Below are positions 30,841 to 50,753 of a stretch of 64,000 nt of DNA, in pieces. The notes beneath the pieces were generated by a model. The model saw nothing but the letters and a program-made list of their open reading frames with translations. It did not search any database and was not told the DNA's origin. Positions within the stretch are counted from its first letter, which is position 1. Each line of letters begins with the position of its first letter. Origin of the DNA: Myxococcota bacterium (lineage in GTDB: Bacteria > Myxococcota_A > SURF-8); contig OZ223209.1 in NCBI GenBank assembly GCA_965140415.1, forward strand, positions 2,176,001 through 2,240,000, written 5' to 3'. The translations under genes and the position numbers were made by a program.

Positions 30841-31731
30841 TTACAAAAACAGCAAAGCCACGCCGCCGACTGCCACAAAGGAGCCGATTACCGCCCGCAG
30901 GCTGACGTTCTCCTTAAAAATCAGAATGGCGGGTGGAATCATCAAGATCGGTACGATGGACATGATGGTCGCGGCGATTCCGGCTTCGGTATATTTGACG
31001 GCGGTCAAAGACATCGACACTCCCAGGAAGGGACCGAAAAAGGCACCGGCTCCCGTGCGTGTCATGGCGGGACGATCTTTCAATGCCGCCCAGACTCGCG
31101 GCCACCAGCCGATCACGGTGAACAGAACGGTGAATCCAATGATTCCGGCGATAATGCGGATTTGCGTCGCGGCGAAGGGATTGTTCTGGCCCATGCCGAC
31201 TTTACTGAAAACCAGTCCGATGGCCTGCCCTGTCGCACCGGCAAACGCCAGCAATAGACCAAGTGTCAGCGTTTTTCGGTCCATCGTTTGTCCTGCCGGT
31301 TTTCGCTCGAATACCACCCAGGCCACGCCGGAAATCGTGATGGCCATGCCGAGCAGGTCTTTGCCGGTCAGTTGCTCATCGAGCAAGATCCAGCCTGCGA
31401 TGGCGGAAATGGGTGGAACCAGACACATGACCAGCATGGAGAGCCGGGAGCCGATCAGGATGAAGGCTCTAAACAGGCTCAAGTCGCCGATTAAAAACCC
31501 GGCAACACCTGAGAGCGCCAGCCAGCCCCAGGCATGAGCGTCCAGATTCAGCGGCAGGGCATGTCCGCAGAAGAAAGTGCAGAACAGGGTCAATAATGCA
31601 AAGCCGATCCACAAGCGGATCAGGTTGACGGTTAATGAACCGATGCGCTTGCCGGCGGATTCGAAGGACATGGCGCTACCGACCCATAGAAAAGCCGTTG
31701 CCAGTGCTGCCAGTTCTCCCAGGTTCTCCAT
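30841..31731 (-). CDS. EamA/DMT family transporter
   Basis: About 10 TM helices in two EamA repeats. Confidence 0.9.
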   Translation of the reverse strand: MENLGELAALATAFLWVGSAMSFESAGKRIGSLTVNLIRLWIGFALLTLFCTFFCGHALPLNLDAHAWGWLALSGVAGFLIGDLSLFRAFILIGSRLSMLVMCLVPPISAIAGWILLDEQLTGKDLLGMAITISGVAWVVFERKPAGQTMDRKTLTLGLLLAFAGATGQAIGLVFSKVGMGQNNPFAATQIRIIAGIIGFTVLFTVIGWWPRVWAALKDRPAMTRTGAGAFFGPFLGVSMSLTAVKYTEAGIAATIMSIVPILMIPPAILIFKENVSLRAVIGSFVAVGGVALLFL

Positions 31732-31972
31732 AATTGTTTGCTCCACTATGAATAGACGTCTTACACGGCCGGCTTTGAGCCTTCACCGGTTATCGAAGGG
31801 AGAGTGTACGCCGGTTTTTTAGAAAGGCAAACGCTTCTATTTCGTTTTTAGGATTTCCAAGGCGGAAAATTCGGATTGATGCCTGGTTCGCGTGTTTGGA
31901 GTTATCTATGAAACTGTGCTATGCTTATATTCGGATGGATTGGATTTGTTTGTAGATGAAAAGGAGAGACGC

Positions 31973-33040
31973 GTGAGCGCAAGAGAACGCCAGGATATCC
32001 CGGTCTTGACGCCTAGCGATATCTACGATCGCCTCGACCGTTTCGTAATCGGTCAAAGGCAGGCCAAGCGGGTCGTGGCGCTGGCGGCGTATAACCATAT
32101 GAAGCGGGTGGGGCAGACGCAGCAGTTGGGACGACCCAAGCTGAGAAAGTCCAACGTGCTGTTAATCGGACCGACCGGCGTTGGAAAGACCCATATCGCT
32201 CGCAATCTGGCGAACATCTTGAATCTCCCATTTACCATCTGCGACGCAACGGAATTTACCGAAGCCGGTTACTATGGAAAAGATGTCGAAGTGATGGTTT
32301 CCGAGCTGCTGTTCGCGGCGGATATGAACGTCGAAGCCTGTCAGCGCGGCATCATTTTCGTGGATGAAATCGATAAAATCGCCCGGCGTTCCGGCGGCAT
32401 GCGAACCGGGGCGGGAAATCGCGATATCGGCGGGGAAGGCGTTCAGCAGGGGTTGCTCAAGTTGTTGGAAGGACGCAGGATTTTCGTTCCTTACAACCTG
32501 ACGCAGCATTGGAACAAGCACGATTTCGTTGAAATCGATACAACCAATATCCTGTTTATCTGTGCAGGCACCTTTACCGATATTCGCAATTACCAGGAAT
32601 CCGGCAACCTTGGATTTTCTGAATCCAAAGCGGGTCGATCGCGCATTCAAAAGCGGATCTCTCAGAAAAAGTTGCTGGAATATGGCATGCTTACGGAATT
32701 ATTGGGCCGTATTCCGGTTGTGGTGCAACTGGCGGATTTGTCGGTCGAGGAACTCAAGCGCATTCTCGTGGAACCGCAGGACTCGTTTCTTAAGGAATTC
32801 CAGGAGCTTCTGACCACGGATGATGTCACTTTGAACTTAACCGATGGCGCTTTGACGAGGATTGCGGAATTTGCCTATGAACGGCAGATCGGCGCACGCG
32901 GTTTGCGCAGTATCCTGGAAGAACTGCTGCATGACATTCTGTTCGATGCTCCCAATTTGCGCGGCCAGACGATTCGATTGGATGCACGAGTCGTTTCAAA
33001 ACGACTCGCCGCCTTCGACAGTTCCCTGCTTGATGAGTAG
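31973..33040 (+). CDS. ClpX-like AAA+ ATPase lacking the N-terminal zinc-binding domain
   Basis: AAGGAG RBS and GTG start. VIGQ..AK, KSNVLLIGPTGVGKT, FVDEIDK, GEGVQQ.LLK, LGF loop and GARGLRSI. Confidence 0.88.
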   Translation: MSARERQDIPVLTPSDIYDRLDRFVIGQRQAKRVVALAAYNHMKRVGQTQQLGRPKLRKSNVLLIGPTGVGKTHIARNLANILNLPFTICDATEFTEAGYYGKDVEVMVSELLFAADMNVEACQRGIIFVDEIDKIARRSGGMRTGAGNRDIGGEGVQQGLLKLLEGRRIFVPYNLTQHWNKHDFVEIDTTNILFICAGTFTDIRNYQESGNLGFSESKAGRSRIQKRISQKKLLEYGMLTELLGRIPVVVQLADLSVEELKRILVEPQDSFLKEFQELLTTDDVTLNLTDGALTRIAEFAYERQIGARGLRSILEELLHDILFDAPNLRGQTIRLDARVVSKRLAAFDSSLLDE

Positions 33041-33268
33041 GTAGCCAAAGAGCCTGCTTGGAATTGCCTCCACCGGTGAATCTCCAGTAAAACAGCCTTC
33101 CTTCAGGTAAATCGGCAAAGAGGCCGGAACAAAAAAACTACATGGATTTAACGCGAATCCCTGTTGACCCCCTCATTCCTTTCTGCTAGGTTGACCGACG
33201 GTACGGGGAACGAATCTCTTGCTCCCTTTGTGTGCTTCTTTAATGTGTCTTCGTCACGTGTAAATTCC

Positions 33269-33883
33269 ATGGAAACGAATGCAATGCGACTTGCTCTCTT
33301 TCGTTGTTTCTTTGCCGTGTTTTCCATCCTGCTGTTGACAAGTGTATCCGATTTACACGCTCAGCAAGCTACGGATTCCGATCTCGATTCGCTTTCCGAC
33401 CTACAACGGCGTGTACTCGTTATGCTTTCCGGCTATGAAACCTTTCCCAATGCCGAACAATGGCAGGCTCTGGAGCCGGAAGCAGCGGATGAGTTGATGA
33501 CGATTGCAACGGATGTGAAACAGTGGCCGCTCCGGCGGGCTCGTGCCGTGCTGGCTCTGGCCTATTTCCCAACGAAACCCGTTCTGCAATTCTTAAGCGA
33601 CCTGTTCACGCGGGAAGATCCGATCGCTCCCATGTTGCGGCGTAAAGCGATTCAGGCGCTGGCGACGGGATTCCCGAAAGAAGCGGTGAGTGTAATTAAA
33701 CCGAATTTGCAAAGCACCGACTTTTATCTGCGTGAAGTCACGATTGATGCCTTACTTCAAATTCGCAGTCCGCAAGCCATGGGGGTGCTCAAGCAGCATA
33801 GGCAAGTGGAAAGCAATGAACTGATCCTGGAGAAAATCAACCGGGCGTTTGCTCGAGAAGTTACGATTGATCCAAAACCATAA
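33269..33883 (+). CDS. Exported HEAT-repeat protein
   Basis: Signal peptide (LHA-QQ), then HEAT-like helices (LRRARAVLALA, LRRKAIQALA, LREVTIDAL). Confidence 0.7.
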   Translation: METNAMRLALFRCFFAVFSILLLTSVSDLHAQQATDSDLDSLSDLQRRVLVMLSGYETFPNAEQWQALEPEAADELMTIATDVKQWPLRRARAVLALAYFPTKPVLQFLSDLFTREDPIAPMLRRKAIQALATGFPKEAVSVIKPNLQSTDFYLREVTIDALLQIRSPQAMGVLKQHRQVESNELILEKINRAFAREVTIDPKP

Positions 33884-33924
33884 CAACACGTTTTAACTAC
33901 CTGATTGAGTGAAGGAGACCGAAA

Positions 33925-36900
33925 ATGAATGGTCCAAAATCAAATTGGCGGATTTTTGTCGTGATAATGGCAATCATGATGCTGTTTGTCGCGATGGGAT
34001 GCGGTGCAACCGGTGATACCGATACCGATCCGGATGGCGACGACGAAAGCTCCAATGAATCCGCAGGGGACGATGATACTCCATACGTTCCTCCTGCAAG
34101 CGGTTTGACCGTCAAGGATCTTCAAAATGAAGAAAGTGTGAACCATCCGTTCCCGGGAACCACGGTCACTCTTAATAATGTAGTTGCCACCAGCTTGAAG
34201 GTGGTCATCAGCAGCAATTCCAACCTTCGCGGTTTCTTTATTGCCGATCAAGGTGGTGGGGAGTACAGCGGTATCATAGCTGTCATGAAGAGCGATATCG
34301 ATTTCGACCCGGAAGTCGGCGACCTGCTGACCATTACCGGTACCTACGTCGAATATTGCGGTGATCCGGCGAACCCGGAAGACGTCTGCTCGTCTCAGAT
34401 CGAATTGACGGCGGTTCCTGTGGTAACCGGCGCGGGTGCCGCTCCTGCCGCGCAGGTGATCGCGAATCCGGCGGATGTGGCGACTGCCGGTTCGTTGCGG
34501 GCGCGCTGGGAACATGCATTGGTAAAAGTCGAGAATGTAACCGTTACCGATTCGGATATCGGTTACGGCGAATTCATGGTCACCGGCGATTTGCAGGTCG
34601 GCGATTTGTTCCTCCAGCAGGATGATCTTTCCTTTAGCGTGGTGCAGGACCAGGAGTTGGATTCGATTTCCGGCTTCCTGTATCTGTCTTATGGCGCCAG
34701 CAAGCTCGAACCGCGCAACCTGGAAGATGTAGTCGCAAAGTCTGCTCCGACCGATTTGACGATTGCGGACATTCAGAATCCGGCTTCCGTGAATCATCCC
34801 AGCCCCGGACCGGTTGAAGTGAAGGGCATTGTGGTTGCTTCGGAACCCTTCGAAGTGTCCAGCAGCGGCTTGATGGGCATTTTCGTGTCCGATCAGGGTG
34901 GCGGCGCCTGGAGCGGTTGCATGTTGACCTGGAAGCCGACCAGCGCGGATGAAACCTACGGCTACGATCCGCCTGCGATGGCTCCCGGCATGGTGATCGA
35001 TGTGGCAGGTAACTACACGGAGTTCTGTGGTGTCTCGGATCCGCTCTACACGCATTGCTCCACCCAGATCGAGTTGACCCCGTATCAGGCGGACAAAGGC
35101 ACGGTGACCGACACCGGCAACACTGCCGATGTTCCCGCGGCTGCCGTCGTTTCTCCGGCGGATATCGCCACGGACGGTTCGCTGTCCGAACAGTATCAGC
35201 ATTCGCTGGTGCGCGTGCTCAACGTTACGGTTGTTGACAATGCTTTGGGATATGGCATGTTCTCCGTTGATGGCGGCCTGGAGGTGGACGATCAGTTCTA
35301 CCGCTACACCGTGCCGCAAATCGGAGTGCAGTACGGAAGCCTGACCGGTTTCCTGTATACGAGCTACGACTCGTTCAAGCTTTGTCCGCGTAACGCCGAT
35401 GACATGGACGAAGGCCCGGTGGATGGTGACGTGGATGGCGACGTGGTCGATGGTGACTGGGATTACGTCGATGGCGACGGTCCGCACGAGTTGCAGATTC
35501 GCGACATCCAGAATATGAACAGCCCCTATCATCCCTCGTTGGGACCGGTGGCGGTAAACAATGTCGTGGTGACTTCCGATCCGTTTGAGGTCTCCAGCAG
35601 TGGCTTGATGGGCATTTTCGTGGCCGATCAGGGCGGTGGTGCATACACCGGTTGTATGCTGACCTGGAAGCCGACTTCCGTTGATGCGACTTACGGTTAC
35701 GATCCGCCCGTGATGAGCCCGGGCATGATTATCAATGTGACCGGGGCTTATACCGAATTCTGCGGTACGGGTACCCCTTACACCTATTGTTCCACCCAGA
35801 TTGAATTGACGCCCTATCAAATGGATAAAGGCACGGTGACCGATACCGGTGAGACCACGGACGTTCCGGAAGCTCGTCTGGTAGAGCCGGGAGATGTGAA
35901 GACCGGCGGTTCCGACAGTGACAAATGGCAGCACAGCCTGGTTTACGTACAGAATGTAACCGTTCTGGATGCCTCTCTTGGCTACGGCATGTTCTCCGTC
36001 GATGATGGTCTTGAGGTGGATGATCAGTTGTATCGCTACACCTTGCCCGCCGTTGGCGTTGAATATGGTATCTTGAGGGGATTCTTGTACACGAGCTACG
36101 ACACGTTCAAACTCTGCCCGCGCAGCGTCGATGACATGCAGGTTGGATTCATCGATGGCGATATCGATGGCGACGTGGATGGTGATGTGGTTGACGGCGA
36201 TGTCGTTGATGGTGACGTGATCGACGGTGACGTGGTTGACGGCGATGTGGTTGATGGCGATGTGGCCGATGGCGATGTGGACCCGAACCTGACTACCTTG
36301 GCCGCGATTCAGAATCCGAATCATCCCAATCACCCGGCTCTGGGTCCGGTGGCGGTAAACAATATCGTGGTGACTTCCGATCCGTTTGAGGTCTCCAGCA
36401 GCGGTCTGATGGGAATTATTATCAGTGAAGGCGAGGGCGGTCCCTGGCAGAATTGTATGCTGACCTGGAAGCCGACTTCCGTTGATGCGACCTACGGTTA
36501 CGATCCGCCCGCAATGAGTCCGGGCATGGTGATCGATGTCACCGGTTCGTATGCCGAGTTCTGCGGTACGGGTACGCCTTACACCTATTGCTCTACCCAG
36601 ATCGAGTTGACCCCGTATCAGGCGGATAAAGGCACAGTGACCGATACCGGCAGCACCGCCTCCGTTCCGGCTGCCATTTCCGTATCGACCGGTGATGTCA
36701 AAACCGGTGGAACGCTTGCCGAACAGTGGCAGCATGCTTTGATCACGGTTTCCGATGTCTTCGTAACGGACAACAGCGTGGGTTACGGTCAGTTTCTCGT
36801 CACGGACAATCTGGTCAGTGATGCGCTGATGGTGGATGACCAGCTCTACTATTACACGCTGCCGGAAGTGGAAGACTATTACGATTCACTGACGGGCTTT

Positions 36901-39900
36901 TTGTATACCAGCTACAACGATTTCAAACTGATTCCCCGCAATGCCGCAGATATGGTCGAATTCACGCCCGATGGTGATGGTGTGGATGGCGATGTCGTAG
37001 ATGGCGATGTGGTAGACGGCGACGTGGTGGACGGCGACGTGGTGGACGGCGATGTGGTGGACGGCGATGTCGTAACCTATCCGGCTCCGGGAGTGGGCGA
37101 GGTCATCTTTACTGAATTCATGGCGAATCCGGCAGTGTTGGCCGACAGCAACGCCGAATGGATTGAACTCGTTAACTTGACCTCCAATACCTTTGGCCTG
37201 GGCGGGATGTATCTGTGTGACAGCTACGATCCCAACTGCGATGTTTTGCCGGATTCCCTGGTCATCGAACCGAATGGCCGCCTGCTGTTTGTCAAGAGCG
37301 ACAACTCGGCGTTCAACGGCGGTTTGCAGTCTGATTTCAACTTCGGTTTCGATCTCAATAACACGGGTGATGTATTGCGCTTGTATGTGGGCGATTCCGT
37401 GACCGGCACCCTGATCGACAGTGTCGATTTCACCGGTTGGACGGTTTCAAGCGGTGTGGCGAATCAACTCGATCCGTCTGCTTTCAATGCGACAGACAAT
37501 GACGATCAAGGCAATTGGTGCGCGGCGACGAGCCAATATGAAGGCACCGGTCCCAACCTGGGTACGCCCAACGGAGACAACCTCGATTGTGATGCGGTTG
37601 ATGGTGATGTAATCGATGGTGATGTAATCGATGGTGATGTAATCGATGGTGACATGATCGACGGTGACATGATCGACGGTGACATGATCGATGGTGACAT
37701 GGTGGATGGCGATGTGGCGGACTGTTACGGCTATGGCGACTGTAACTCGGCTTGCATCGGTGCAGGTTACGATTCCGGTATGTGCGTGGATGCCATCCAG
37801 GGTTGCGCCTGCAACTACGATAGCTGCTCCGGCTACGTCTGTGGCGACTACTACGACAACTGTTCCTGTGCGGCAGCGGATCCCTGCTCCTGGCAGGGGG
37901 ATGACTACTGCGACGATTACTGTGCTGTTGTGTACCCGGACGATCACTTCGACGACAGCGCCGATTGCTCGGTGGATGGCGATATTGACGGTGATGTCGA
38001 TGGCGACGTGGTGGACTGCTACGGCTATGGTGATTGCAACTCGGCTTGCATCGGCGCTGGTTACGATTCCGGTATGTGCGTGGACGCCATCCAGGGTTGC
38101 GCCTGCAACTACGATAGCTGCTCCGGCTACGTCTGTGGCGACTACTACGACAACTGTTCCTGTGCGGCAGCGGATCCCTGCTCCTGGCAGGGGGATGACT
38201 ACTGCGACGATTACTGTGCTGTTGTGTACCCGGACGATCATTTCGACGATACCGCCGATTGTTCGGTGGATGGCGATGTCGACGGTGATACGGTGGATGG
38301 CGACACGACGACCTATCCTCTGCCTGGTGTCGGCGATGTGATCTTTACCGAATTCCATCCCAATCCGAATACCTTGTCCGATAACAATGCGGAATTCGTG
38401 GAAGTGCTCAACCTGTCCGGCGATTGGCTTTCTCTGGGAGGTTTGAACCTGTGTGATAGCTATGACGGCAACTGTGCTCCGCTGCCTTCCGATCTGAACA
38501 TCGGTCCCAATGCACGCCTGCTCTTTGCTCGCAGTAGTGATACGGGATTGAATGGTGGTTTGACCGTCGATGCCGTTTTTGACTTCGGCATGAACAATGA
38601 TGGCGACCAGCTTCGCCTGATCGACGGCGATCCCACGACCGGCACCGTGATCGACAGTGTGGATTTCGATGCATGGTGGATTACCGCCGGAGCGGCCTGG
38701 CAGCTGGATCCGTCCGCTTACGATGCAACGATGAACGACGACGAAGCCAACTGGTGTCTGGCCACCAACGAATACGAAGCGACCGGACCTAATTATGGTA
38801 CGCCGGGCGTGGAAAACGACGATTGCCCGGTCATCGATGGTGATGTGGTTGACGGCGACATCGTTCCGACTTTGGTGACGATATACGAAATCCAGAATCC
38901 CGATGACGCCGGTCATCCCAGTGAAGGACCGGTCGCCGTAAATGGTCTGGTTATTACTTCCGATTCCTTTGTGATTTCCTCCAGCAGTGGGCTGACAGGC
39001 GTTTTCGCCAGCGAAACTGCCGGTGGTCCCTGGTCCGGCATCCTGCTGGTCTGGACACCGACTGCCAGTGACGCCAACGGCTACGATCCGCCAGCCATGG
39101 GTAAAGGCGATTCTGTCAATGTCGTTGGTGACTACGTGGAATATTGCGGTGGTTCCGGTACGTATACCTCCTGCTCGACGCAGATCGAATTGACGGCGCT
39201 GGTCAATACCGGTATGTCTTCGCCCGTTCCCGTTGCGACAACAGTGGATGCCGCCGATATCGCGACGGGTGGCTCCATGGCCGAGCAGTATCAGTTCATG
39301 CTGGTACAGGTTGAAAATGTGGAAGTTACCGATAACGGTCTGGGTTATGGGGAATTTACCGTAACCGGCGGTTTGCGCGTAGACGATTCTCTCTATAGTT
39401 ATACACTGCCTGCCAATGGCGTGAATTATGATACGTTGGCCGGTTATCTGTACACCAGCTACAACGATTTCAAACTGCTGCCGCGTGACGCCAATGATAT
39501 GGTAGAAACGCTGGTGGATGGTGATACGGTCGACGGCGACATGGTCGATGGTGATGCGGTGGATGGCGATATTGAGCCTTCCGAAGTGGTGATTAACGAA
39601 CTGTATTACGATTCGGATGAAACCTCGGATAACGCCAATGTGTTTATCGAACTGTATGGCATCGGCGATCTGTCACTTTCCGGTTATTCCATCGTGGCGA
39701 TCAACGGCTCCAACGGCGATGAATATTCCACCACGGATCTAACCGGGCAGAGCATCCCGGCGGATGGTTTCTTCGTGCTGGCGGATTCGGATAGCGGTGT
39801 GACCAATGTCGCCAATGCCGATATGGTTAGCGACAGCGTGGATTACCAGAACGGAGCCGACACCGTGCAGTTGCGTTACAACGGCACCACGGTCGATGCG

Positions 39901-40083
39901 CTCGCTTATGGCACCGGAGTCAGTTATAACGCCGGTGAAGGCACTGAAGCTCAGGATGTGGGGCCGGGCATGAGCCTTGCGCGTAATCCGGATGGCTCGG
40001 ACACGAATGACAATGCCACCGACTTCGCGGCTTGTTCCACCCCGACGCCGGGTGCCAGCAACGCCAGTTGTTTCTCTCGCTAG
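33925..40083 (+). CDS. Giant modular surface lipoprotein (5 OB-like modules, 3 lamin-tail domains, DGD linkers, duplicated Cys-rich unit)
   Basis: AAGGAG RBS and lipobox AMGC. Five TI.DIQN...PR...D modules. LTD motifs VIFTEF.ANP...AEW/FIEL...GTPG and VVINEL...FIEL...PTPG. Confidence 0.9.
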   Translation: MNGPKSNWRIFVVIMAIMMLFVAMGCGATGDTDTDPDGDDESSNESAGDDDTPYVPPASGLTVKDLQNEESVNHPFPGTTVTLNNVVATSLKVVISSNSNLRGFFIADQGGGEYSGIIAVMKSDIDFDPEVGDLLTITGTYVEYCGDPANPEDVCSSQIELTAVPVVTGAGAAPAAQVIANPADVATAGSLRARWEHALVKVENVTVTDSDIGYGEFMVTGDLQVGDLFLQQDDLSFSVVQDQELDSISGFLYLSYGASKLEPRNLEDVVAKSAPTDLTIADIQNPASVNHPSPGPVEVKGIVVASEPFEVSSSGLMGIFVSDQGGGAWSGCMLTWKPTSADETYGYDPPAMAPGMVIDVAGNYTEFCGVSDPLYTHCSTQIELTPYQADKGTVTDTGNTADVPAAAVVSPADIATDGSLSEQYQHSLVRVLNVTVVDNALGYGMFSVDGGLEVDDQFYRYTVPQIGVQYGSLTGFLYTSYDSFKLCPRNADDMDEGPVDGDVDGDVVDGDWDYVDGDGPHELQIRDIQNMNSPYHPSLGPVAVNNVVVTSDPFEVSSSGLMGIFVADQGGGAYTGCMLTWKPTSVDATYGYDPPVMSPGMIINVTGAYTEFCGTGTPYTYCSTQIELTPYQMDKGTVTDTGETTDVPEARLVEPGDVKTGGSDSDKWQHSLVYVQNVTVLDASLGYGMFSVDDGLEVDDQLYRYTLPAVGVEYGILRGFLYTSYDTFKLCPRSVDDMQVGFIDGDIDGDVDGDVVDGDVVDGDVIDGDVVDGDVVDGDVADGDVDPNLTTLAAIQNPNHPNHPALGPVAVNNIVVTSDPFEVSSSGLMGIIISEGEGGPWQNCMLTWKPTSVDATYGYDPPAMSPGMVIDVTGSYAEFCGTGTPYTYCSTQIELTPYQADKGTVTDTGSTASVPAAISVSTGDVKTGGTLAEQWQHALITVSDVFVTDNSVGYGQFLVTDNLVSDALMVDDQLYYYTLPEVEDYYDSLTGFLYTSYNDFKLIPRNAADMVEFTPDGDGVDGDVVDGDVVDGDVVDGDVVDGDVVDGDVVTYPAPGVGEVIFTEFMANPAVLADSNAEWIELVNLTSNTFGLGGMYLCDSYDPNCDVLPDSLVIEPNGRLLFVKSDNSAFNGGLQSDFNFGFDLNNTGDVLRLYVGDSVTGTLIDSVDFTGWTVSSGVANQLDPSAFNATDNDDQGNWCAATSQYEGTGPNLGTPNGDNLDCDAVDGDVIDGDVIDGDVIDGDMIDGDMIDGDMIDGDMVDGDVADCYGYGDCNSACIGAGYDSGMCVDAIQGCACNYDSCSGYVCGDYYDNCSCAAADPCSWQGDDYCDDYCAVVYPDDHFDDSADCSVDGDIDGDVDGDVVDCYGYGDCNSACIGAGYDSGMCVDAIQGCACNYDSCSGYVCGDYYDNCSCAAADPCSWQGDDYCDDYCAVVYPDDHFDDTADCSVDGDVDGDTVDGDTTTYPLPGVGDVIFTEFHPNPNTLSDNNAEFVEVLNLSGDWLSLGGLNLCDSYDGNCAPLPSDLNIGPNARLLFARSSDTGLNGGLTVDAVFDFGMNNDGDQLRLIDGDPTTGTVIDSVDFDAWWITAGAAWQLDPSAYDATMNDDEANWCLATNEYEATGPNYGTPGVENDDCPVIDGDVVDGDIVPTLVTIYEIQNPDDAGHPSEGPVAVNGLVITSDSFVISSSSGLTGVFASETAGGPWSGILLVWTPTASDANGYDPPAMGKGDSVNVVGDYVEYCGGSGTYTSCSTQIELTALVNTGMSSPVPVATTVDAADIATGGSMAEQYQFMLVQVENVEVTDNGLGYGEFTVTGGLRVDDSLYSYTLPANGVNYDTLAGYLYTSYNDFKLLPRDANDMVETLVDGDTVDGDMVDGDAVDGDIEPSEVVINELYYDSDETSDNANVFIELYGIGDLSLSGYSIVAINGSNGDEYSTTDLTGQSIPADGFFVLADSDSGVTNVANADMVSDSVDYQNGADTVQLRYNGTTVDALAYGTGVSYNAGEGTEAQDVGPGMSLARNPDGSDTNDNATDFAACSTPTPGASNASCFSR
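36154..36282 (+). repeat. Intragenic 15-bp tandem repeat encoding DGD(V/I)(V/I/A)
   Basis: GAY-GGY-GAY-GTN-RYN units. Similar tracts at about 36970-37070, 37600-37713 and 39517-39570. Confidence 0.85.
37720..38277 (+). repeat. Near-identical 294-bp tandem duplication of a 14-Cys unit
   Basis: Units start at 37720 and 38014 and have long identical DNA stretches. Confidence 0.9.
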
Positions 40084-40111
40084 TCATAAATAGCCTGAAC
40101 GGTACAGATAC

Positions 40112-42022
40112 ATGCTTCTAACCAAACTTTCCCGATTCGCTGTTGTCCTATGGGCCTTGGGGCTCATATGGGCGGCGGCGGGATGTACGGTGGATGGAAA
40201 CGATGTGCGCTATCCAAAACAGGATTTGCGTATGACCTTCGTTCACACCACCGATTCGCATTCCAAGGTGCTGCCGTTTAAATACATTCCGGTTATGACA
40301 GATGAGAACCTGGGCATCCTGCGTTGCCCCGGCGAGGAACAACTTGCCAACTGCCGGACCTGCTTGCAGTATGAAATCGCGGATCTGGAGGATTCCTCCA
40401 TGAGTCCAACGGTCAGCGAATGCAGCGATTGCATGCAGTTCGTCAAGGACGAAGATGTCTGCCCGGATTGTCTGGCCGGTTCCTATGACAACGAAGCCTG
40501 TTTCGCCTGCATCGATGACGTGCGGATCTCGCAACGTTGCGTGGATTATACCTACGGCGGCGCGGCTCGGGTTGCCTGGGCGATCAACCAGGAACGGGCG
40601 AAAGCCGGGCGCTTCGCTCACGTCGATACCGGGGATTTCTACCAGGGGGCTCCGGTTTTCAACCTGTTTCGAGGAGAAGCGGAAGTCCGTGCCTTGTCGT
40701 TGATGGGTGTGGAAGCTTCGGTCATCGGAAATCATGAGTTCGATGCCGGTGCAGACCGGTTGTCGGAAGTGTTGTACAAATATGCCACTTTCCCGGTTTT
40801 AAACGCGAACTTCATGTGGCAGGCGGCTGATGAACCCGGATCGACCCAGCTTGGGGATCTCGTACAACCCTTCATGATTCGCGATTACAATGGGATTCGC
40901 ATCGGCTATATCGGGCTAGGGAACCTGCGTTCCTTAAATAGCCTTGGCGATGCGGGAAACAGTATGGGCGTTCGCGCCCTGGACACCTTCCAGGTGTTAA
41001 ACGAATACGTTCCGATGATTCGCTCCCAGGTCGATCTGGTCGTGCTTCTTTCTCATCTTGGCGTGAGCGGAGATATGGAGGTCGCAAGCAATATCCCCGG
41101 CATCGATCTGATTTTCGGCGGGCACGACCACGTCGTCATCAATCCTCCGGCGCAGGTGAAAAACCCGGATGGGCGCACGACACTGATCGTTCACTCCGGT
41201 GTCAATTACAAATGTATCGCACGTTTGGATATCACCGTGCGCTACGATGGGGACGGTATCGGCGCTCACATTCTTTCCCACGATTACACCGTGATTCCCA
41301 TTTCGAGTGAAACCGATTCTCTGGGTGAGCCGCTAGTCGGCGAAGATCCCATGGTTTCGAATATGTTGTACGACTACAAATTCGAACTGGATCGCGCTCA
41401 GAATCTGGAATATGAAATCGGCACGGCCACTGCGGATTTCCCTCGCTATGCGCCGGGAGATTCGCCGCTTGGAAACCTGGTCGCTACGGCGATGAGGCAA
41501 CGCCAGCGCATCGAAACCGATTTCTCCGTGACCAATTCCCTGGGTATCCGCGCCGATCTGTACAAGGGACCGATTACGGTTGGAAAGATGTATGAAATCT
41601 TCCCCTTTGAAAACACCGTGACGACCATGTATTTGTCGGCCCCGGAGTTGTATCGATTGTTCGATTACATCGCGGGGCGTACGGCGGCTTACGGTTGCAA
41701 AACCCAGGTGCAGATTTCCGGTGCAAAAACCGTGCTGAACTGTTCGTTGGGACGGGTGAAGGAACTGAGCATCAACAACATCAAGATCGTCGATTGCTAC
41801 AAGCTGGTGGAGAAGTCTGCGGTCTTCAGTATGGCGACCAATGACTATATCGCCAACGGCGGTTCCGGTTTCGACATTCTGGAGCAGAATACCACCAAAA
41901 TGGACACCATGTTGTCCCTGCGTGACGTGGTGCTGGATTACATCGAGCAAGAACAGGAAATTTCGCCCATCGAGGATGGACGAATTACTCTGATCAAAGA
42001 GGAGACGGAAACGTGCGACTAA
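40112..42022 (+). CDS. Bifunctional metallophosphatase/5'-nucleotidase lipoprotein (UshA-like)
   Basis: Lipobox AAGC. TDSHS, DTGD, GNHEFD, LSHLG and GGHDH. C-domain GIRADL, FPFEN and GGSGF. Confidence 0.93.
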   Translation: MLLTKLSRFAVVLWALGLIWAAAGCTVDGNDVRYPKQDLRMTFVHTTDSHSKVLPFKYIPVMTDENLGILRCPGEEQLANCRTCLQYEIADLEDSSMSPTVSECSDCMQFVKDEDVCPDCLAGSYDNEACFACIDDVRISQRCVDYTYGGAARVAWAINQERAKAGRFAHVDTGDFYQGAPVFNLFRGEAEVRALSLMGVEASVIGNHEFDAGADRLSEVLYKYATFPVLNANFMWQAADEPGSTQLGDLVQPFMIRDYNGIRIGYIGLGNLRSLNSLGDAGNSMGVRALDTFQVLNEYVPMIRSQVDLVVLLSHLGVSGDMEVASNIPGIDLIFGGHDHVVINPPAQVKNPDGRTTLIVHSGVNYKCIARLDITVRYDGDGIGAHILSHDYTVIPISSETDSLGEPLVGEDPMVSNMLYDYKFELDRAQNLEYEIGTATADFPRYAPGDSPLGNLVATAMRQRQRIETDFSVTNSLGIRADLYKGPITVGKMYEIFPFENTVTTMYLSAPELYRLFDYIAGRTAAYGCKTQVQISGAKTVLNCSLGRVKELSINNIKIVDCYKLVEKSAVFSMATNDYIANGGSGFDILEQNTTKMDTMLSLRDVVLDYIEQEQEISPIEDGRITLIKEETETCD

Positions 42023-43137
42023 GCGCGCTACTATTAAGTGCTCTTCTGCTTATGGCCTTATTCGGCTGTGAGAAGGGAGAGCAACTGCAAATCGAGAGCG
42101 GCGTGACCAGCCTACGGGTGACGCTGTTAAGTGATTCCGGTTCCAGCGAGCAGCCTTTGGATGCCACCGATGGCTTGACGTTGAACGTAAAAGTAGAAGC
42201 CCTGGACAATACCGGAGCGGTTGTCCCGAGTTACGATGGGGTTTTGAGATTCGACGCAAAACCGGGATTTATCGGACGCAACGGCTGGGAAGAACTGGAA
42301 GTCACTTCGGGAGATACCGTCTCCCTGGCGTTTAAGCGGGGCTTTGGGGCCGCACGCATTCAGGCTGTGGATGCAGAGCGCCAGTTGGTGGGGGTTTCGG
42401 AAACCTTTTATCTTCCAGAGCCGACGATTTCCACCATTCAGAGCACCGTTGGCGATATCGACGGCTCCCCTTGGGGCGGCTCGTTTCTGCGCATCGAAAG
42501 CGGGCGTATCGTCGTAACCCACAAAACCATCGGTGGGTTTTACGCAACGGATGTCTCCGATGACTCTTACAACCATATCTATGTATACACGCACGGGATA
42601 CCTTCGCTGGAGCGAGGGGACGTCTTAAGCTGGGTCAGCGGAACGGTCAGCGAATTCTACGGCTTGACTGAATTGGCGTTTCCCGAATACGAAATCGAAT
42701 GCAGTTATTATCCCGTGCCTGAACCGATTGCAATTACCGCGGATATGATGTCCGGTACCAGCTTCGACCGAAATAAAATGGAAGATCTGGAAGCCGGTTT
42801 GGTCGTTCTGGAAAACGCGCGCGTGCGTAACGTCGATGCGGTGGACTTTTTCACCTATGGGCAGTGGGTGGCGCATACCGCAGATGGTGTGGCCATCACG
42901 GTGCTGTCTCGCGAGGCGTTGCCGTCTTTCGATCCCTCGCTTTGCCTAGAAGGCACCTCGTTTACGCGCATCGTGGGAAATCTTCGCCAGCACTGGGCAG
43001 CGGATACGGACTGGATCGTCGTGCCGCGCGATCCCTGCGACGTGCAGACCGAATCGACGAAGGAAGCCTGTGTGCTGACACCGCCGGATTATTGCACGGT
43101 CCCGACACCGGAAACGACCTGTACTTTCGAAGATTGA
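42013..43137 (+). CDS. Lipoprotein with OB-fold-like module
   Basis: Lipobox LFGC. TISTIQ, GFYATD, GDVLSWVSGTVSEFYGLTEL, E.LEAGLV.LEN and PRDPCD, i.e. the same module type as in the giant protein. Overlaps the upstream stop. Confidence 0.78.
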   Translation: MRLSALLLSALLLMALFGCEKGEQLQIESGVTSLRVTLLSDSGSSEQPLDATDGLTLNVKVEALDNTGAVVPSYDGVLRFDAKPGFIGRNGWEELEVTSGDTVSLAFKRGFGAARIQAVDAERQLVGVSETFYLPEPTISTIQSTVGDIDGSPWGGSFLRIESGRIVVTHKTIGGFYATDVSDDSYNHIYVYTHGIPSLERGDVLSWVSGTVSEFYGLTELAFPEYEIECSYYPVPEPIAITADMMSGTSFDRNKMEDLEAGLVVLENARVRNVDAVDFFTYGQWVAHTADGVAITVLSREALPSFDPSLCLEGTSFTRIVGNLRQHWAADTDWIVVPRDPCDVQTESTKEACVLTPPDYCTVPTPETTCTFED

Positions 43138-43187
43138 TGAAAGCTTGAGACTATTGAAAACGATCAACTGGAATCGCTAACCTAAAA

Positions 43188-45056
43188 ATGGAAAAGATTA
43201 TGATGACTTGGTTCAAACCCTTTTTGGTAACGATGCTTCTTTTACTTGCTTTCCCGCTTATGTCGTATGCACAGAGCGATCAGGAAGCAGTGCAAGGCAG
43301 CGTGGGGCAGCCTGATGCCGCAACGAGTAGCGCGCCCTCTGATACGACGGCAACCGAGCCTGCGGTTGAAAATGAGGCTCCTGCGGCTACGACGACGGAA
43401 ACGGAAAAGGCAGAAGTCGAACCGGCAGCCGCTGAACCGGCAGAGGTCGAACAGGCAAATGCTGTTACCGAGCAACCGGATGAAGCCGAGAAAGCTTTAG
43501 CCGATACGCTGGCAGATGCCGAAGAGGCGAAAACGAACTCGGAAACTCCCAAGGCTCCCGGTTTCGACTGGCGGGAATTCATCGATACCAAGCTGAGCAT
43601 CTCCTACGCGGATGACAACATGTTGGAAAACAACGAGTTCTCGCCATCGTTCGGTATCGGGCAGCAAAACACCAGCGATTTTACCGGCAACACCGGTGAA
43701 TTGCAGCCCAACGAGATCAACCATACCCATCTGGTTGTCCATCACAAAGGCGAAGGTTATCTGCCGGGGATCATGACCGAAGCGGCGATGGTGCTGAAAC
43801 TGAGCGTCACCACCGATCCTACCACCGGTAGTGCGGATACGGGTATTTCCGATGACGGCAGCTTTTTGCGTTTCGGTTATATTTTCAAACAGGGCACCGA
43901 TGAAGAAATGATGCTCGACGTCACCGGTTTTCCCTTCGATGCCGAACGCTTTTTGCTGGGATTCCATTACGACTTGAGCTGGGGTGGTGAGGCGTCCTTC
44001 CCGCAGAATTCCGATTCCGTGCCGGGAGTTCGCCTGGGATTCACCCATCCCCGTTTTTACTTCTTCGCCGGGATGAAAACGCACCTGCAACCCAAGAAAG
44101 ACAAGCTCAACACCGAACGTGTTCCCACCGAGCGGGTCTATGCCGGTTTGTTCGGTGCGGGCGTCACGTTGTACGACGGATTGATGCTGGAAGCCAATGG
44201 CGGCGTTTTCGAAAAGGGCGACAACCCCAACATGCCGGAAGTCACCGGCGAAGGCGGTCGCGACGACATCCTGTCGGGCGGCATTTCCACGCGCCTGTCC
44301 TATTCGTATGGAATTCCGATCGGGGATCGCATGGATCTGCGCCTGTATCAGAACGATCCGCGCAAGATGCTGGATCTGGTGCGCAACGACGAATACGAAC
44401 CGGGTCGCTTTTCCGCCATGGTTTCGGCGGAGTACGCTTTCCTGACACAGAACCTGCAAGATCCCGACAAGCCCGATGGCACCAAGGCGTTTAATGCCAT
44501 GGCCGCGCATGTCGGATTGAAACTGAAATACGATTATCTGCGTATCCATTTGGAAGGCGCTTATCGAAGCCTGGAATTTTTGCTGTTCAACACTCCCGGC
44601 TATGTTCCTTTCCAGGCCTTTCCCGACTCGGCTAAAACACGCCCGGAACTGTACGGTGTGATTTCATTGGATTATTACATCAAGCAAGCTTACCTGACCT
44701 TGGGATTGACGGCGGGCTACAAGATCCCGGCGACCTATCAAGGGGATGACGGTGTGCCGATTTCGGTCGTAAAACGTCCGACTGCAACGACGGCCTACAT
44801 TTCGCCCTTTAACCGCGCGATCGAAATCCTTCCCGACGGCAAAGATGCCTTTGATATCATCGAAGCCAAATTCGACGCCGAATTCGATTTGTCCGATTTC
44901 ATGACCTTCCTGCTGGAAGTCAGTTACACCCTGGATAACAACCGCGTCAAGCTGGCGACCTCGCCCAATAACAGCGAAACACTGTATAAGAAATTCGAGG
45001 ACGACAACGTTACCAATCGCCTGGGGCTGGCGATTGTCGTGCAGGCGGCGTTCTAG
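43188..45056 (+). CDS. Putative outer-membrane beta-barrel protein with acidic Ala/Glu/Thr/Pro N-terminal linker
   Basis: Signal peptide (SYA-Q), many amphipathic strands and C-terminal LAIVVQAAF. Confidence 0.75.
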   Translation: MEKIMMTWFKPFLVTMLLLLAFPLMSYAQSDQEAVQGSVGQPDAATSSAPSDTTATEPAVENEAPAATTTETEKAEVEPAAAEPAEVEQANAVTEQPDEAEKALADTLADAEEAKTNSETPKAPGFDWREFIDTKLSISYADDNMLENNEFSPSFGIGQQNTSDFTGNTGELQPNEINHTHLVVHHKGEGYLPGIMTEAAMVLKLSVTTDPTTGSADTGISDDGSFLRFGYIFKQGTDEEMMLDVTGFPFDAERFLLGFHYDLSWGGEASFPQNSDSVPGVRLGFTHPRFYFFAGMKTHLQPKKDKLNTERVPTERVYAGLFGAGVTLYDGLMLEANGGVFEKGDNPNMPEVTGEGGRDDILSGGISTRLSYSYGIPIGDRMDLRLYQNDPRKMLDLVRNDEYEPGRFSAMVSAEYAFLTQNLQDPDKPDGTKAFNAMAAHVGLKLKYDYLRIHLEGAYRSLEFLLFNTPGYVPFQAFPDSAKTRPELYGVISLDYYIKQAYLTLGLTAGYKIPATYQGDDGVPISVVKRPTATTAYISPFNRAIEILPDGKDAFDIIEAKFDAEFDLSDFMTFLLEVSYTLDNNRVKLATSPNNSETLYKKFEDDNVTNRLGLAIVVQAAF

Positions 45057-45082
45057 GTTGTTCCTTGTTGTTTCGTTTTCAT

Positions 45083-45110
45083 GCGCCGGTTCATTCCGGC
45101 GTTTTTTCTT
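45083..45110 (+). terminator. Intrinsic terminator closing the 33.9-45 kb block
   Basis: GCGCCGG-TTCATT-CCGGCGT followed by TTTTTCTT. Confidence 0.75.
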
Positions 45111-45141
45111 TGTGTGTTGATGTGGCATAGGATGATTCGAC

Positions 45142-45228
45142 GGGTGGCATTGGACAAGAGAAGAGAAACGGAGCTTGCCCATGGGGCTCTTGAACACGGG
45201 CAAGCCTGCGGCTTAGCCCGCGCCACCC
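45142..45228 (-). repeat. REP-like palindromic element (inverted orientation)
   Basis: Reverse complement GGGTGGCGCGGGCTAAGCC-GCA-GGCTTGCCCGTG...CATGGGCAAGCTCC...GCCACCC matches the 26711 copy. Confidence 0.75.
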
Positions 45229-45352
45229 TGAAATCGGACAAGTTTGCAACTGCTTGTGATGCATCCATGGCATAGGATGATTATTAGCTCTGCTTGTGGC
45301 TTTTGTAACCTCATGATACTATTAATCACGATTTAGGGTTTTCCAGAATGGG

Positions 45353-46561
45353 GTGATCGGCATGGTGGTGGTGCGCCATAATATCAATTTCGGTTTGCAG
45401 GAAATTAGGGCGATTGCACATGATCTGCTGCGCTCGGATGTCTGCTTCGGGGAACACGTTGTTGCTTTTGAGGAGGAGTTCGCGGCCTATCACGGTGTGG
45501 CATATGCCCGCAGTTTCGGATCCTGCCGCTCGGCCTTGTACACAGTGCTTCAATCGCTGGATTTAGCTGCCGGTGCGGAAGTCGTGGTGCCTGCCTACAG
45601 TTTTTACATCGTTCCGGATATCGTTCGCGCCGCCGGATATGTGCCGGTTTTTGCGGAGAATCATCCTCGAACCTATGCGATGGACCCCGAGAAACTAGAG
45701 GATGTCATTACCGAGAAAACCGCCGCGATAATCGTGGAGCATCCTTTCGGGCAACCCGCTCCCATGCGTGAATTGGCCGAGATCGCTGCGCGTCACGATC
45801 TGCGCCTGATCGAGGATTTCTCCCAGTCGATCGGGGCGGAACTGGCGGGGAAGAAAGTCGGTTCGTTTGCCGACGCCGCCGTGGCCAGTATGGTGCATGG
45901 AAAAAACCTGACGACTTTGGGTGGCGGCATGGCCATCACGGATCGTGCAGAACTTGCTGACAACTGGGAGAAAAGCTATGCGGCTAATACTTCCCCCTCG
46001 CAATCGACTGAAGTGCGTAAGAACGCGCTTTCCGGGCTTTTAAACACCTTTCTTAGTACTCGCCTCGGCTTCACTCTCGGTCCGATGGCTCCGTTCTATC
46101 TGTTGAATCTTGTCGACAGGGGAAAACTGGAGGCGATCTTTACCGAACAACCACAGCCATTCAATCCTGAGCATATCGGGAGACTGTCGAACTTGCAGGC
46201 GCATCTGGGTCGCATTCAGTTGCAGCGGCTAGATAGTCTCAATGAAATTCGTCGTGGACATGCTCTGCGGATCATGCATGGACTGGAAAATGTGGCTGGA
46301 ATCGAACTGCCGGAAGTCGTTTCGGATGGCGTGGGAACCTTCAACGCACTGCCGTTGCGCGTTTTCGATGCGCTGGCTTTTCAACGAAAGCTGCTGATTC
46401 ACGGTGTGGATACGCGCGCCGATTACATGACATTGTATGCCTACGAAAAGGCTTGGAATTGGCACGGTGAGGTGCTGTATCTGCCTTGTCATCCGGGTAT
46501 GACGGACAATGATGTGGACCGTGTGATTCGCATGGTTCGCGCTGTGGCTGTACATTCATGA
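45353..46561 (+). CDS. DegT/DnrJ/EryC1/StrS PLP-dependent aminotransferase
   Basis: FEEEFA, EVVVPAY, H.FGQPA, IEDFSQS.GA, KNLTTLGGG (PLP lysine) and LPCHP. Confidence 0.88.
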   Translation: MIGMVVVRHNINFGLQEIRAIAHDLLRSDVCFGEHVVAFEEEFAAYHGVAYARSFGSCRSALYTVLQSLDLAAGAEVVVPAYSFYIVPDIVRAAGYVPVFAENHPRTYAMDPEKLEDVITEKTAAIIVEHPFGQPAPMRELAEIAARHDLRLIEDFSQSIGAELAGKKVGSFADAAVASMVHGKNLTTLGGGMAITDRAELADNWEKSYAANTSPSQSTEVRKNALSGLLNTFLSTRLGFTLGPMAPFYLLNLVDRGKLEAIFTEQPQPFNPEHIGRLSNLQAHLGRIQLQRLDSLNEIRRGHALRIMHGLENVAGIELPEVVSDGVGTFNALPLRVFDALAFQRKLLIHGVDTRADYMTLYAYEKAWNWHGEVLYLPCHPGMTDNDVDRVIRMVRAVAVHS

Positions 46562-47579
46562 GCGAGCGGACTTCCTCAAAAAGCTCTATGGTGCTTCGTG
46601 TTGCATTCGCAATCCTGCTTGCCGTGTCGCTGGGATGGATTTCCTTACGAAATGTGAAACTCGATTCGTTTCTTCACGCGCTGAGTGACGTGCATGGCGG
46701 CGTGCTGCTGTGTGGCGTGTTGTTCTATGGAGCCGCACTGTACGTTCGTGGCGTTCGCATGCGCATTCTAAGTGGCGGACTGGCAGTGATTTCCTGCTGG
46801 CAGTGGTTTCGTTACACGATGATCGGCATGATGCTGGACAACCTGCTGCCCGCCCATCTCGGGGAAGTGTATCGCGGCTATCTTGCGTGTTCACGGGGGA
46901 AAGTCGCGATCGGTTCCGTGTTGTCGCTTCTGTTTGTAGAGCGCGTCTTCGACGGACTAGTATTGCTCGCATTCTTGTCGGCAGGGTTGATGCTCATTCC
47001 GGCGGAAAATCCCTGGGTGTTGCATCTGCACACCGTATCGCTTGTAGTATTTGGATGTTGCTTGGCTGTGATGATGGTTTTAACGGCCTGGCCGGAGTTG
47101 TGGCGGCGTTTATTGGCATTGCTGGCGCAGCGGCTACCCGCTTCGGTTTCTGAAATCACATGGTATCAGGGCGCTGATGCCTTACAGGCGCTTGGCCAGT
47201 TGCGTTCCATGCGCGTCCTGCTTGGGTCGGCACTGACCAGCTTGTTGCATTGGGCGTTGGAAGCCTGCTTTTACTGGATGCTCTTTCGGGCGTTCGGCAT
47301 CCAGGCGCAATTTCATTGGGGAGTATTGGCGGTTGCTGTAGTGTCACTGGCGACGGCCTTGCCTACGCTTCCCGCCAGTGTGGGCGTATACCACTTTGCC
47401 CTGGTGACGAGTTTGATGCTTTGCGGTGTGGAGACGAGTACCGCATTGGCGGTGGCCGTACTCGGTCATTTATTGGAGCAGGGAATCGAAAACGGGTTGG
47501 GGCTGGCGTTCTGGTTGCAGTCGCGCCGTTCCTTTCCACGCTGGGGAGAAATTAAGGAAGTTTTAAAGAATTCTCAGTA

Positions 47580-47598
<19 letters not shown>
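46558..47598 (+). CDS. Lysylphosphatidylglycerol-synthase TM (UPF0104 flippase-like) membrane protein
   Basis: NLLPAHLGEVYR, VERVFD and LP.LPASVGVYH motifs. Confidence 0.88.
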
Positions 47599-48924
<1,326 letters not shown>

Positions 48925-48953
<29 letters not shown>

Positions 48954-50634: not shown

Positions 50635-50753
50635 GTCCTCGTTTTCCATTCGTATCCGTTTTACAATCGACCATTCAAACCGGATCGGCATGGTAACGCA
50701 TTCTACCATGAATGCAAGCTTCTTCAAACGCTTGGATCAAGATGTAGAAACGC

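Follow-up and report, generated by a model that had tools for sequence, protein, structure and literature searches.

What does a bacterium do with four tightly packed envelope genes, three of them predicted to encode lipoproteins and the last an outer-membrane barrel? Such a cluster occupies positions 33925–45056 of the window, the 64,000-nucleotide stretch of Myxococcota bacterium DNA analysed here (GenBank assembly GCA_965140415.1, contig OZ223209.1, positions 2,176,001 to 2,240,000). The original prediction, made from the sequence alone, took it for a system that captures extracellular nucleic acid and salvages nucleotides. We find that three of the genes, encoding a nucleotidase (P0002), an OB-fold lipoprotein (P0003) and a barrel (P0004), form a previously undescribed, unnamed conserved envelope module of Myxococcota. 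We put the probability that this trio, together with the giant lipoprotein P0001, scavenges nucleotides or nucleic-acid fragments at the cell envelope at about 0.5.

Four envelope genes on one strand

The listing of open reading frames (ORFs) and direct reading of the sequence give the following layout, with the four ORFs packed together on the plus strand:

33911–33917, plus strand: Shine-Dalgarno sequence GAAGGAG before the P0001 start codon
33925–40083, plus strand: P0001, 2052 aa
40112–42022, plus strand: P0002, 636 aa
42013–43137, plus strand: P0003, 374 aa, GTG start
43188–45056, plus strand: P0004, 622 aa
45083–45112, plus strand: intrinsic terminator, stem 45083–45102 plus T-run

P0001 and P0002 are separated by 28 nt, P0002 and P0003 overlap by 10 nt, and 50 nt lie between P0003 and P0004, the same values as had been given for the four co-oriented genes in the original prediction. 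A single closing terminator had been described as well, and is found: its stem of seven pairs, six of them G-C, begins 26 nt past the P0004 stop, is followed by a T-run, and is the strongest and sole strong plus-strand terminator in 33000–46000. Terminator-like sites number 15, compared with 12.9 ± 4.3 in shuffled sequences; as this is no excess, only the site at 45083–45102 counts. Scanning the entire window against Rfam with gathering thresholds gave 0 matches and recognised no riboswitch or leader.

In the translations, a lipobox cysteine ends the signal peptides of P0001 (Cys26), P0002 (Cys25) and P0003 (Cys19), marking these as the three predicted lipoproteins that had been proposed; the signal peptide of P0004 ends in a SYA/Q-type cleavage site and lacks a lipobox. 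A lysine at position +2 is described as marking lipoproteins for retention in the inner membrane of M. xanthus (PMC3222651). Since none of P0001, P0002 and P0003 has this lysine, their targeting to the outer membrane appears plausible.

Nucleotidase, OB lipoprotein and barrel are conserved together

Barrel-family genes were found in 20 of 41 relatives and, across the phylum, in at least 141 of 401 genomes and at least 99 of 254 genera, the last two counts being a floor from a stricter first look. By taxonomic family the distribution is in places all-or-none: the counts reach 9/9, 17/19 and 10/12 in some families and drop to 0/35, 0/29 and 0/25 elsewhere. A barrel relative is encoded on 373 genome contigs, and the 80 that we kept are labelled as Polyangia, Labilithrix (including L. 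luteola DSM 27648), Nannocystis, Haliangium, Kofleriaceae or Anaeromyxobacteraceae or bear generic names.

Searching with tblastn in 19 loci fetched around barrel genes revealed a nucleotidase in all 19 and a P0003 homologue between nucleotidase and barrel in 18. Sixty-one of 80 further loci had at least 3.5 kb of upstream sequence; 58 of these contained the nucleotidase, 58 the P0003 homologue and 55 both. Profile hidden Markov models, applied only to loci with at least 4.5 kb upstream, recovered a nucleotidase and a P0003-type lipoprotein on the barrel's strand in 17 of 17 and 56 of 56 loci; these two sets share six contigs and so are not independent, nor are related genomes independent samples. 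The nucleotidase lies upstream of the barrel in 54 of the 56 loci and downstream in two (L077, L101). The conserved unit is the trio of nucleotidase, OB lipoprotein and barrel, which no informative locus breaks up. What flanks it changes from lineage to lineage, and the recurrent neighbours among the 93 loci compared are housekeeping genes only (the many spurious antisense ORF clusters of high-GC loci were ignored).

The co-conservation that the original prediction had expected of four genes thus holds for three. The 2052-aa gene is variable: P0001 homologues in relatives range from 694 to 1665 aa, and extra genes with a P0001-type module, encoding 310 to 1665 aa and in some cases placed between P0003 and the barrel, occur in 10 of the 17 and 12 of the 56 loci. 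P0001 is a lineage-specific accessory gene, an expansion beside the core trio. None of the three trio proteins has more than a hypothetical or generic annotation, and a literature search, which did not cover supplements, found no description of the myxobacterial trio.

P0002 has the intact motifs of a 5'-nucleotidase

The first core gene encodes, as judged from its sequence, a UshA/CD73-type 5'-nucleotidase lipoprotein. Both Pfam domains score above their cut-offs (5_nucleotid_C, 89.1 bits against 23.6; Metallophos, 33.5 bits against 21.5), and the closest relatives of known structure are the T. thermophilus 5'-nucleotidase 2z1a (E = 1.3e-44) and CD73 (E about 1e-31); no NCBIfam equivalog cut-off is reached. 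The motifs DxH, GD, GNHE, H and GHxH of the dimetal site are all present. We aligned P0002 with 11 homologues linked to the cluster and sampled throughout the phylum. Residues D48, H50, D175, N207, H315, H338 and H340, which correspond to the metal ligands of UshA and CD73, are invariant in all 12 sequences, in keeping with the intact metal motifs claimed for this enzyme, and H208 is kept in 11. Equally invariant in all 12 are the lipobox Cys25, the C-terminal R480, F499 and GGxG at 583–586, and the cysteine pair C529/C544.

P0002 has the same two-domain architecture as UshA, CD73 and the T. thermophilus enzyme, along with their metal ligands and the nucleotide-binding motifs at the C-terminus. 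It differs from them in its predicted lipid anchor and in that its gene is always accompanied by those of an OB lipoprotein and a barrel, and its clade has a Cys-rich insertion of ~77 residues, restricted to 5 of the 12 aligned sequences and matching no Pfam family:

40319–40549, plus strand: Cys-rich insertion, P0002 residues ~70–146, between metal motifs I and II (alignment of 12)

Other lineages (L022, L023, L030) have long Cys-rich C-terminal extensions instead of the insertion. At 9423–12083 of locus L029 (genome G007), a double-OB module is inserted in the cluster's nucleotidase itself: it separates the N-terminal from the C-terminal domain in an ORF of 886 aa, so that two core functions out of three are naturally fused.

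P0003 is predicted to contain a pair of OB folds

The second core gene was modelled with 14 homologues, at a predicted local distance difference test score (pLDDT) of 87.9, and its domains are predicted as follows:

42013–43137, plus strand: P0003, core gene 2; Ig-like domain at residues 30–135, OB fold 1 at 136–232, OB fold 2 at 235–350

Structural comparison by VIA-align matched the Ig-like sandwich to GH2 C-terminal and intimin domains (Z ~9), OB fold 1 to MCM8 (Z 9.7) and to AsnRS/AspRS, RPA and an engineered OB domain (Z 9.0–9.4), and OB fold 2 to RPA (Z 8.0–8.5). The OB matches to MCM, AsnRS/AspRS, RPA and HIN have root-mean-square deviations (rmsd) of 1.9–2.5 Å over 78–90 residues. The complex of p204 HINab with double-stranded DNA (dsDNA), 5z7d, ranked first in Foldseek (E = 6.5e-5, probability 0.98), followed by IFI16 HIN domains; VIA-align gives P0003 and 5z7d_A a Z of 8.7, with rmsd 1.9 Å over 80 residues. 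In its model, then, P0003 is an Ig-like domain plus a HIN/ExeM/DUF5689-like pair of OB folds, and the earlier suggestion of OB folds stands up to structural comparison (Z 8.3–9.7). The lipobox cysteine is invariant in 14 of 14 P0003 relatives.

P0004 is predicted to be a porin-type barrel

The third core gene encodes a protein without a Pfam or NCBIfam family, including any TonB-receptor or plug family, and its ESM-Atlas neighbours are unnamed Myxococcota clusters. Its layout is predicted as:

43188–45056, plus strand: P0004, core gene 3; signal peptide, acidic disordered stretch ~29–130, barrel 131–622, terminal Phe

A structure model built with 25 sequences is disordered at ~22–131 and beta-rich at ~132–621. 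Foldseek matched it to AlgE, porins, OprD and LamB, with E values down to 3.5e-9 (AlgE) at probability 1.00. VIA-align gave Z 21.6 to maltoporin (rmsd 4.3 Å, 352 of 421 maltoporin residues aligned), about 20 to OccK/OprD and about 19 to ScrY and AlgE (18–20 for these together), with 300–358 residues aligned across all these channels. Residues 124–622 align end to end with 18-strand porin-type barrels; the strand number is taken from the matched channels (maltoporin, OccK/OprD, ScrY, AlgE), all of them 18-stranded, rather than from a count on the model. The claim that the fourth protein is a beta-barrel is therefore upheld, and the model makes P0004 an apparent 18-strand LamB/OprD/AlgE-like outer-membrane barrel. 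The C-terminal Phe is invariant in 25 of 25 barrel-family sequences.

P0004 shares its fold with LamB, ScrY, OccK/OprD and AlgE (Z 18–21.6) yet has no sequence-family match to them, the identity being 7–12%. It also differs from them in its ~100-residue acidic disordered N-terminal extension and its obligate linkage to two lipoprotein genes. No Pfam model describes the barrel family, and no solved structure is related to it by sequence. We considered other barrel types. The 16-strand porins are lower in the list (Z about 17); a Tsx-type nucleoside channel is not among the VIA-align matches listed, which does not exclude Tsx. AlgE-like polysaccharide export with a UDP-sugar hydrolase was set aside, the conserved unit having no glycosyltransferase or OPX genes. 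In some genomes two barrel genes of the P0004 family stand in tandem (for example G240:C93:12570-15592 and G120:C548:9812-12879).

P0001 repeats the OB module

The accessory gene encodes five modules of ~220 aa each with 38–71% pairwise identity, every one starting with the motif T/L-I-x-x-I/L-Q-N, together with three lamin-tail domains (LTDs, PF00932) and a duplicated Cys-rich segment:

34087–34740, plus strand: tandem-OB module 1, residues 55–272 (self-comparison, motif, hhalign)
34747–35424, plus strand: tandem-OB module 2, residues 275–500 (self-comparison, motif)
35482–36159, plus strand: tandem-OB module 3, residues 520–745 (self-comparison, motif)
36292–36984, plus strand: tandem-OB module 4, residues 790–1020 (self-comparison, motif)
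37087–37431, plus strand: lamin-tail domain 1 (Pfam PF00932, 36.7 bits, cut-off 34.3)
37702–38289, plus strand: tandem 294-nt duplication (95% nt identity), two Cys-rich/Asp-rich repeats of unknown fold
38329–38667, plus strand: lamin-tail domain 2 (Pfam PF00932, 39.0 bits, cut-off 34.3)
38857–39510, plus strand: tandem-OB module 5, residues 1645–1862 (self-comparison, motif)
39577–39912, plus strand: lamin-tail domain 3 (best stretch of the whole-protein match, residues 1885–1996)

A profile of the P0001 modules aligns with the P0003 family over 191 columns (P0003 residues 137–347; hhalign 97.7%, E = 2.3e-12). It follows that the two lipoproteins carry the same module, as the original prediction had proposed, and that each P0001 module is a tandem OB. 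The LTDs that it had reported in the 2052-aa protein are likewise present in three copies, each above the cut-off, with 101.6 bits for the whole protein over the three stretches. The kinship with ExeM that it had also proposed is borne out in part: the ExeM/NucH model NF033681 weakly matches P0001 (42.6 bits, E = 3.6e-11) and P0003 (17.7 bits, E = 0.0013) at model positions 11–117 only, the N-terminal OB region, far from its cut-off of 300 bits. A profile search of the OB module against PDB sequences gave no match at E ≤ 1.

The two 89-aa Cys/Asp-rich repeats are 97.8% identical and have 16 Cys each and no Lys or Arg; they match no Pfam family, with only a 'Defensin-like' match below threshold. 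The 294-nt duplication looks recent. Linkers of the form (V/I/M)DGD, with a 15-nt period in the DNA, join the P0001 domains, and the protein has a net charge of -303, with 275 Asp.

A possible role in nucleotide scavenging

Our preferred reading, a nucleotide-centred envelope function, rests on the constant partnership of an intact lipid-anchored nucleotidase, a double-OB lipoprotein and a channel-type barrel; the G007 fusion supports the same view. The OB modules would hold nucleic-acid-derived material (oligonucleotides, nucleotides) at the cell envelope, once nucleases whose genes lie elsewhere have released it from matrix DNA, lysed cells or prey. P0002 would remove phosphate, and P0004 would serve as a dedicated outer-membrane passage, either bringing nucleotides in to a periplasm-facing enzyme or passing nucleosides and phosphate after hydrolysis at the surface. 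The gene layout and the co-conservation of the trio are secure, and the folds, the intact catalytic motifs and the homology between modules are shown as well; within this scheme we infer the ligand, the membrane face, any contact among the three proteins, which way transport runs and how the genes are regulated, and it is by analogy with related folds that the OB modules may bind nucleic acid.

Myxococcota are major predators of soil and sediment with very large secreted proteomes. To our knowledge, little is known of how they recover the nucleic acids of their prey, a rich source of phosphorus and nitrogen. Present in at least a third of the sampled species of the phylum, the trio is a strong candidate for this role. 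If our reading is true, it is also a second, independently built pairing of a double-OB lipoprotein with a barrel, porin-type in place of TonB-dependent; and if the ligand is not nucleic acid, the trio still defines a new lipoprotein-barrel complex.

The original prediction of a nucleic-acid harvesting system fares unevenly: its OB folds, barrel and co-conservation are found, the locus has no nuclease, and the modules are acidic. Without a nuclease in the locus, polymer harvesting there is not self-contained.

Comparison with known systems

In B. subtilis, the wall-anchored protein YhcR unites OB, nuclease and 5'-nucleotidase domains. The LTD and the double-OB (YhcR-like) accessory region of YhcR- and ExeM/Xds/NucH-type nucleases recur in the proteins of our locus, which differ in having no EEP or SNase domain: searches of Pfam and NCBIfam found neither catalytic domain in the four proteins. 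In ExeM the YhcR-like double-OB region is reported to be needed for nuclease activity, its deletion nearly abolishing activity (PMC6085458).

The closest known system, and the best precedent by analogy, is a lipoprotein-barrel pair of Bacteroidota. In Riemerella anatipestifer, the DUF5689 protein RA0C_RS04920 and the adjacent barrel RA0C_RS04915 are both described as essential for natural transformation (PMC8459023). Their B. thetaiotaomicron homologues, DdbD and DdbC, belong to a six-gene locus, ddbABCDEF, reported as required for DNA depletion; there DdbD, which is similar to the HIN domain with which p202 binds dsDNA, is modelled as sitting atop DdbC, a TonB-dependent transporter (bioRxiv 10.1101/2025.03.18.642099). 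As those sources describe them, these systems, like ours, place a HIN/p202-type double-OB lipoprotein (P0003 falls in the same HIN class) next to an outer-membrane barrel along with nucleic-acid-processing enzymes. The myxobacterial barrel, however, is of the 18-strand porin type where that of ddb is a TonB-dependent transporter, its locus enzyme is a 5'-nucleotidase where that of ddb is a nuclease, and the phylum differs. Secreted nucleases such as those of ddb were found neither in the four genes nor among their neighbours or the recurrent neighbours of related loci. DUF5689 is not reached by sequence in the myxobacterial trio.

A further parallel is offered by the 'DNA-degradation loci' of Ca. 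Izemoplasmatales, in which secreted nucleotidases cluster with a large protein combining nucleic-acid binding with LTDs; as described in that source, these loci belong to organisms without an outer membrane and differ in having nucleases and ABC importers but no barrel (PMC8289736). The original prediction had called the cluster Sus-like. It does resemble Sus-like polysaccharide utilisation loci in encoding surface lipoproteins and an outer-membrane protein together, but it has neither a SusC-type TonB-dependent transporter nor a SusD fold, P0004 being porin-like and P0003 built of Ig and OB folds, and in the strict sense the name does not apply. No named system had been recognised in this layout; a system of related logic does have a name, ddbABCDEF (bioRxiv 10.1101/2025.03.18.642099), and the trio works along similar lines to it and to the ExeM/YhcR-type enzymes but belongs to neither. 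Its unrelated barrel class and its nucleotidase as the fixed enzyme make it new relative to the known envelope loci for nucleic acids and nucleotides.

A more specific form of our reading seems quite unlikely to us: a TonB-independent outer-membrane machine that imports fragments of nucleic acid, in which the HIN-like lipoprotein caps or feeds the barrel, the tethered nucleotidase pulls the flux by dephosphorylating incoming material, and P0001 acts as a long 'fishing line' for nucleic acids of prey or matrix. If true, it would be the myxobacterial counterpart of the DdbCD/Riemerella transporter, built from an unrelated barrel class.

Weighing the alternatives

A number of observations weigh against nucleotide scavenging. 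Some concern how far the proteins can be assigned. OB folds also bind sugars and proteins, and UshA-family enzymes also cleave UDP-sugars, NAD and dinucleotides, which are candidate substrates here too. The OB Z values of P0003 (8–10) are only moderately over the background stated by VIA-align, and the P0004 model is of middling confidence (mean pLDDT 68.5, barrel blocks mostly 70–93). Neither P0001 nor P0003 attains ExeM/NucH membership by sequence, and P0003 gives no match to DUF5689 (PF18942; gathering score 28.6 bits) at E ≤ 5. One of 14 P0003 relatives matches DUF5689 at E = 0.0093 and one of six modules at E = 0.15; the only DUF5689 match in the organism's own genome, at 20.6 bits, lies in another protein, and 13–22% of the members of the nearest named ESM-Atlas clusters of P0003 carry DUF5689, which is a lead only.

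Others concern partners and charge. In the lineages examined, neither the cluster nor its surroundings hold a nuclease or an inner-membrane transporter. Every OB module is acidic, with net charges of -19 to -23 for those of P0001 and of -14 to -33 per ~215 residues for the OB regions of 14 P0003-family members, one at -3. The conserved positions of the module are mostly aromatic, polar or acidic, with few basic residues, and such acidity is unusual for binders of a polyanion. The charge test is nevertheless a weak one, because lipobox-bearing ORFs of this organism are acidic as a class (their median net charge is -9.9 per 100 aa, whereas that of long ORFs genome-wide is -1.8), a bias that suggests an acidic exoproteome, as in saline habitats. 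Moreover, the module occurs in proteins of other kinds. Two are encoded in the same genome:

C1:2982232-2985312 (L113): 1026-aa Peptidase_C10/Lcl_C protein
C1:3398657-3402631 (L114): 1324-aa amidohydrolase/LTD protein

Among 21 longer database relatives of the module, 13 have an LTD, seven an amidohydrolase domain, six PF02412 and one PF13091, and none of the 21 has an EEP nuclease or nucleotidase domain.

Several of these points would suit a ligand other than nucleic acid, which we consider unlikely. The OB folds and LTDs would then be attachment modules for matrix, carbohydrate or Ca2+-bridged surfaces, with P0001 an adhesin-like polyanion, and the nucleotidase would act on ATP, ADP, AMP, NAD, UDP-sugars or cyclic or linear dinucleotides, so as to scavenge phosphate or clear signals. 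The extreme acidity of modules and linkers, the makeup of the conserved module residues and a locus devoid of nuclease all fit this explanation. So do the thrombospondin-type-3 repeat families of some module relatives (one so named by its source) and the presence of the module in a cysteine protease and in amidohydrolases. It sits less easily with the nearest structural matches, which are nucleic-acid-binding OB families including HIN-dsDNA, with the fusion of the module into the G007 nucleotidase, and with an amidohydrolase partner that appears most like purine deaminases, if far under cut-off. The relation of the module to the ExeM double-OB region reported as required for nuclease activity (PMC6085458) likewise speaks for nucleic acid.

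How the three proteins are arranged bears on two further explanations. Plug-and-barrel or porin-scaffold logic is known from other pairs of outer-membrane lipoproteins and barrels, and P0004, rather than being a nutrient channel, could in this way anchor the two or three lipoproteins or translocate them to the surface, where they would work as an ecto-nucleotidase complex. The strict co-conservation of barrel and lipoproteins and the short tethers after the lipid-modified Cys of P0002 and P0003 would be expected of such surface display, as would the lack in all three lipoproteins of the +2 Lys reported for inner-membrane retention (PMC3222651) and the modelling of the Bacteroidota DUF5689 partner on its barrel (bioRxiv 10.1101/2025.03.18.642099). 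The best folds of P0004, however, are diffusion channels (LamB, ScrY, OccK/OprD) and the exporter AlgE rather than known lipoprotein translocons, although a shared fold does not fix function, and on balance we doubt this explanation. A complex prediction for P0003 (20–374) with the P0004 barrel (125–622), using our own alignments, gave a score of 0.00 and a mark of 0.32, neither for nor against binding. Import of DNA strands or long oligonucleotides across the outer membrane by OB lipoprotein and barrel, for transformation or feeding as proposed for Riemerella RA0C_RS04920/04915, follows a parallel logic, with a HIN-like OB lipoprotein encoded beside a barrel and the pair strictly conserved. 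For an 18-strand porin-type barrel that lacks a TonB-dependent plug, however, no means of drawing a polymer through is known, the mononucleotidase that is always the third partner is ill-suited to the import of intact DNA, and no competence genes are linked to the cluster in the loci compared, all of which makes this very improbable.

Neighbouring genes and other occurrences of the module

Upstream on the same strand, 31892–33883 encodes a 382-aa ClpB-like AAA protein (AAA_2 plus ClpB_D2-small) and a 239-aa HEAT-repeat protein. The HEAT gene is 41 nt from P0001 with no terminator-like site between them (scanned from 33000), and the pair may be co-transcribed with the cluster. We rejected these two genes as core members; they lie beside the cluster in only one other locus (L015). 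Further upstream, 29679–31746 of the window holds a sulfotransferase and an EamA transporter on the opposite strand. Downstream, 45353–50727 holds a DegT-type aminotransferase and an LPG_synthase_TM protein, then, on the opposite strand, a sigma-54 response regulator and a histidine kinase. These neighbours, from sulfotransferase to histidine kinase, do not recur beside the trio in the loci compared, the exceptions being isolated matches to a histidine kinase or a response regulator in L014, L039 and L097. In many of the Polyangia loci L042–L111 the trio stands between ptsI/rapZ and a Ser/Thr kinase, a zinc-ribbon protein and PNPase; the chromosomal position is conserved, with no link in function implied.

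Elsewhere in the genome, nucleases comprise two SNase proteins, one Endonuclease_1 and one EEP protein; in the preferred reading these would do the cutting of polymers that yields substrate. The best NCBIfam matches of the module-bearing amidohydrolase are TRZ/ATZ hydrolase and guanine/8-oxoguanine deaminases, at 62–66 bits against cut-offs of 375–540; this likeness, if real, would again point to a nucleobase enzyme. A third module protein of the genome is shorter:

C1:3764541-3765725 (L112): 394-aa repeat protein

An SNase gene (3774348) lies ~9 kb from it.

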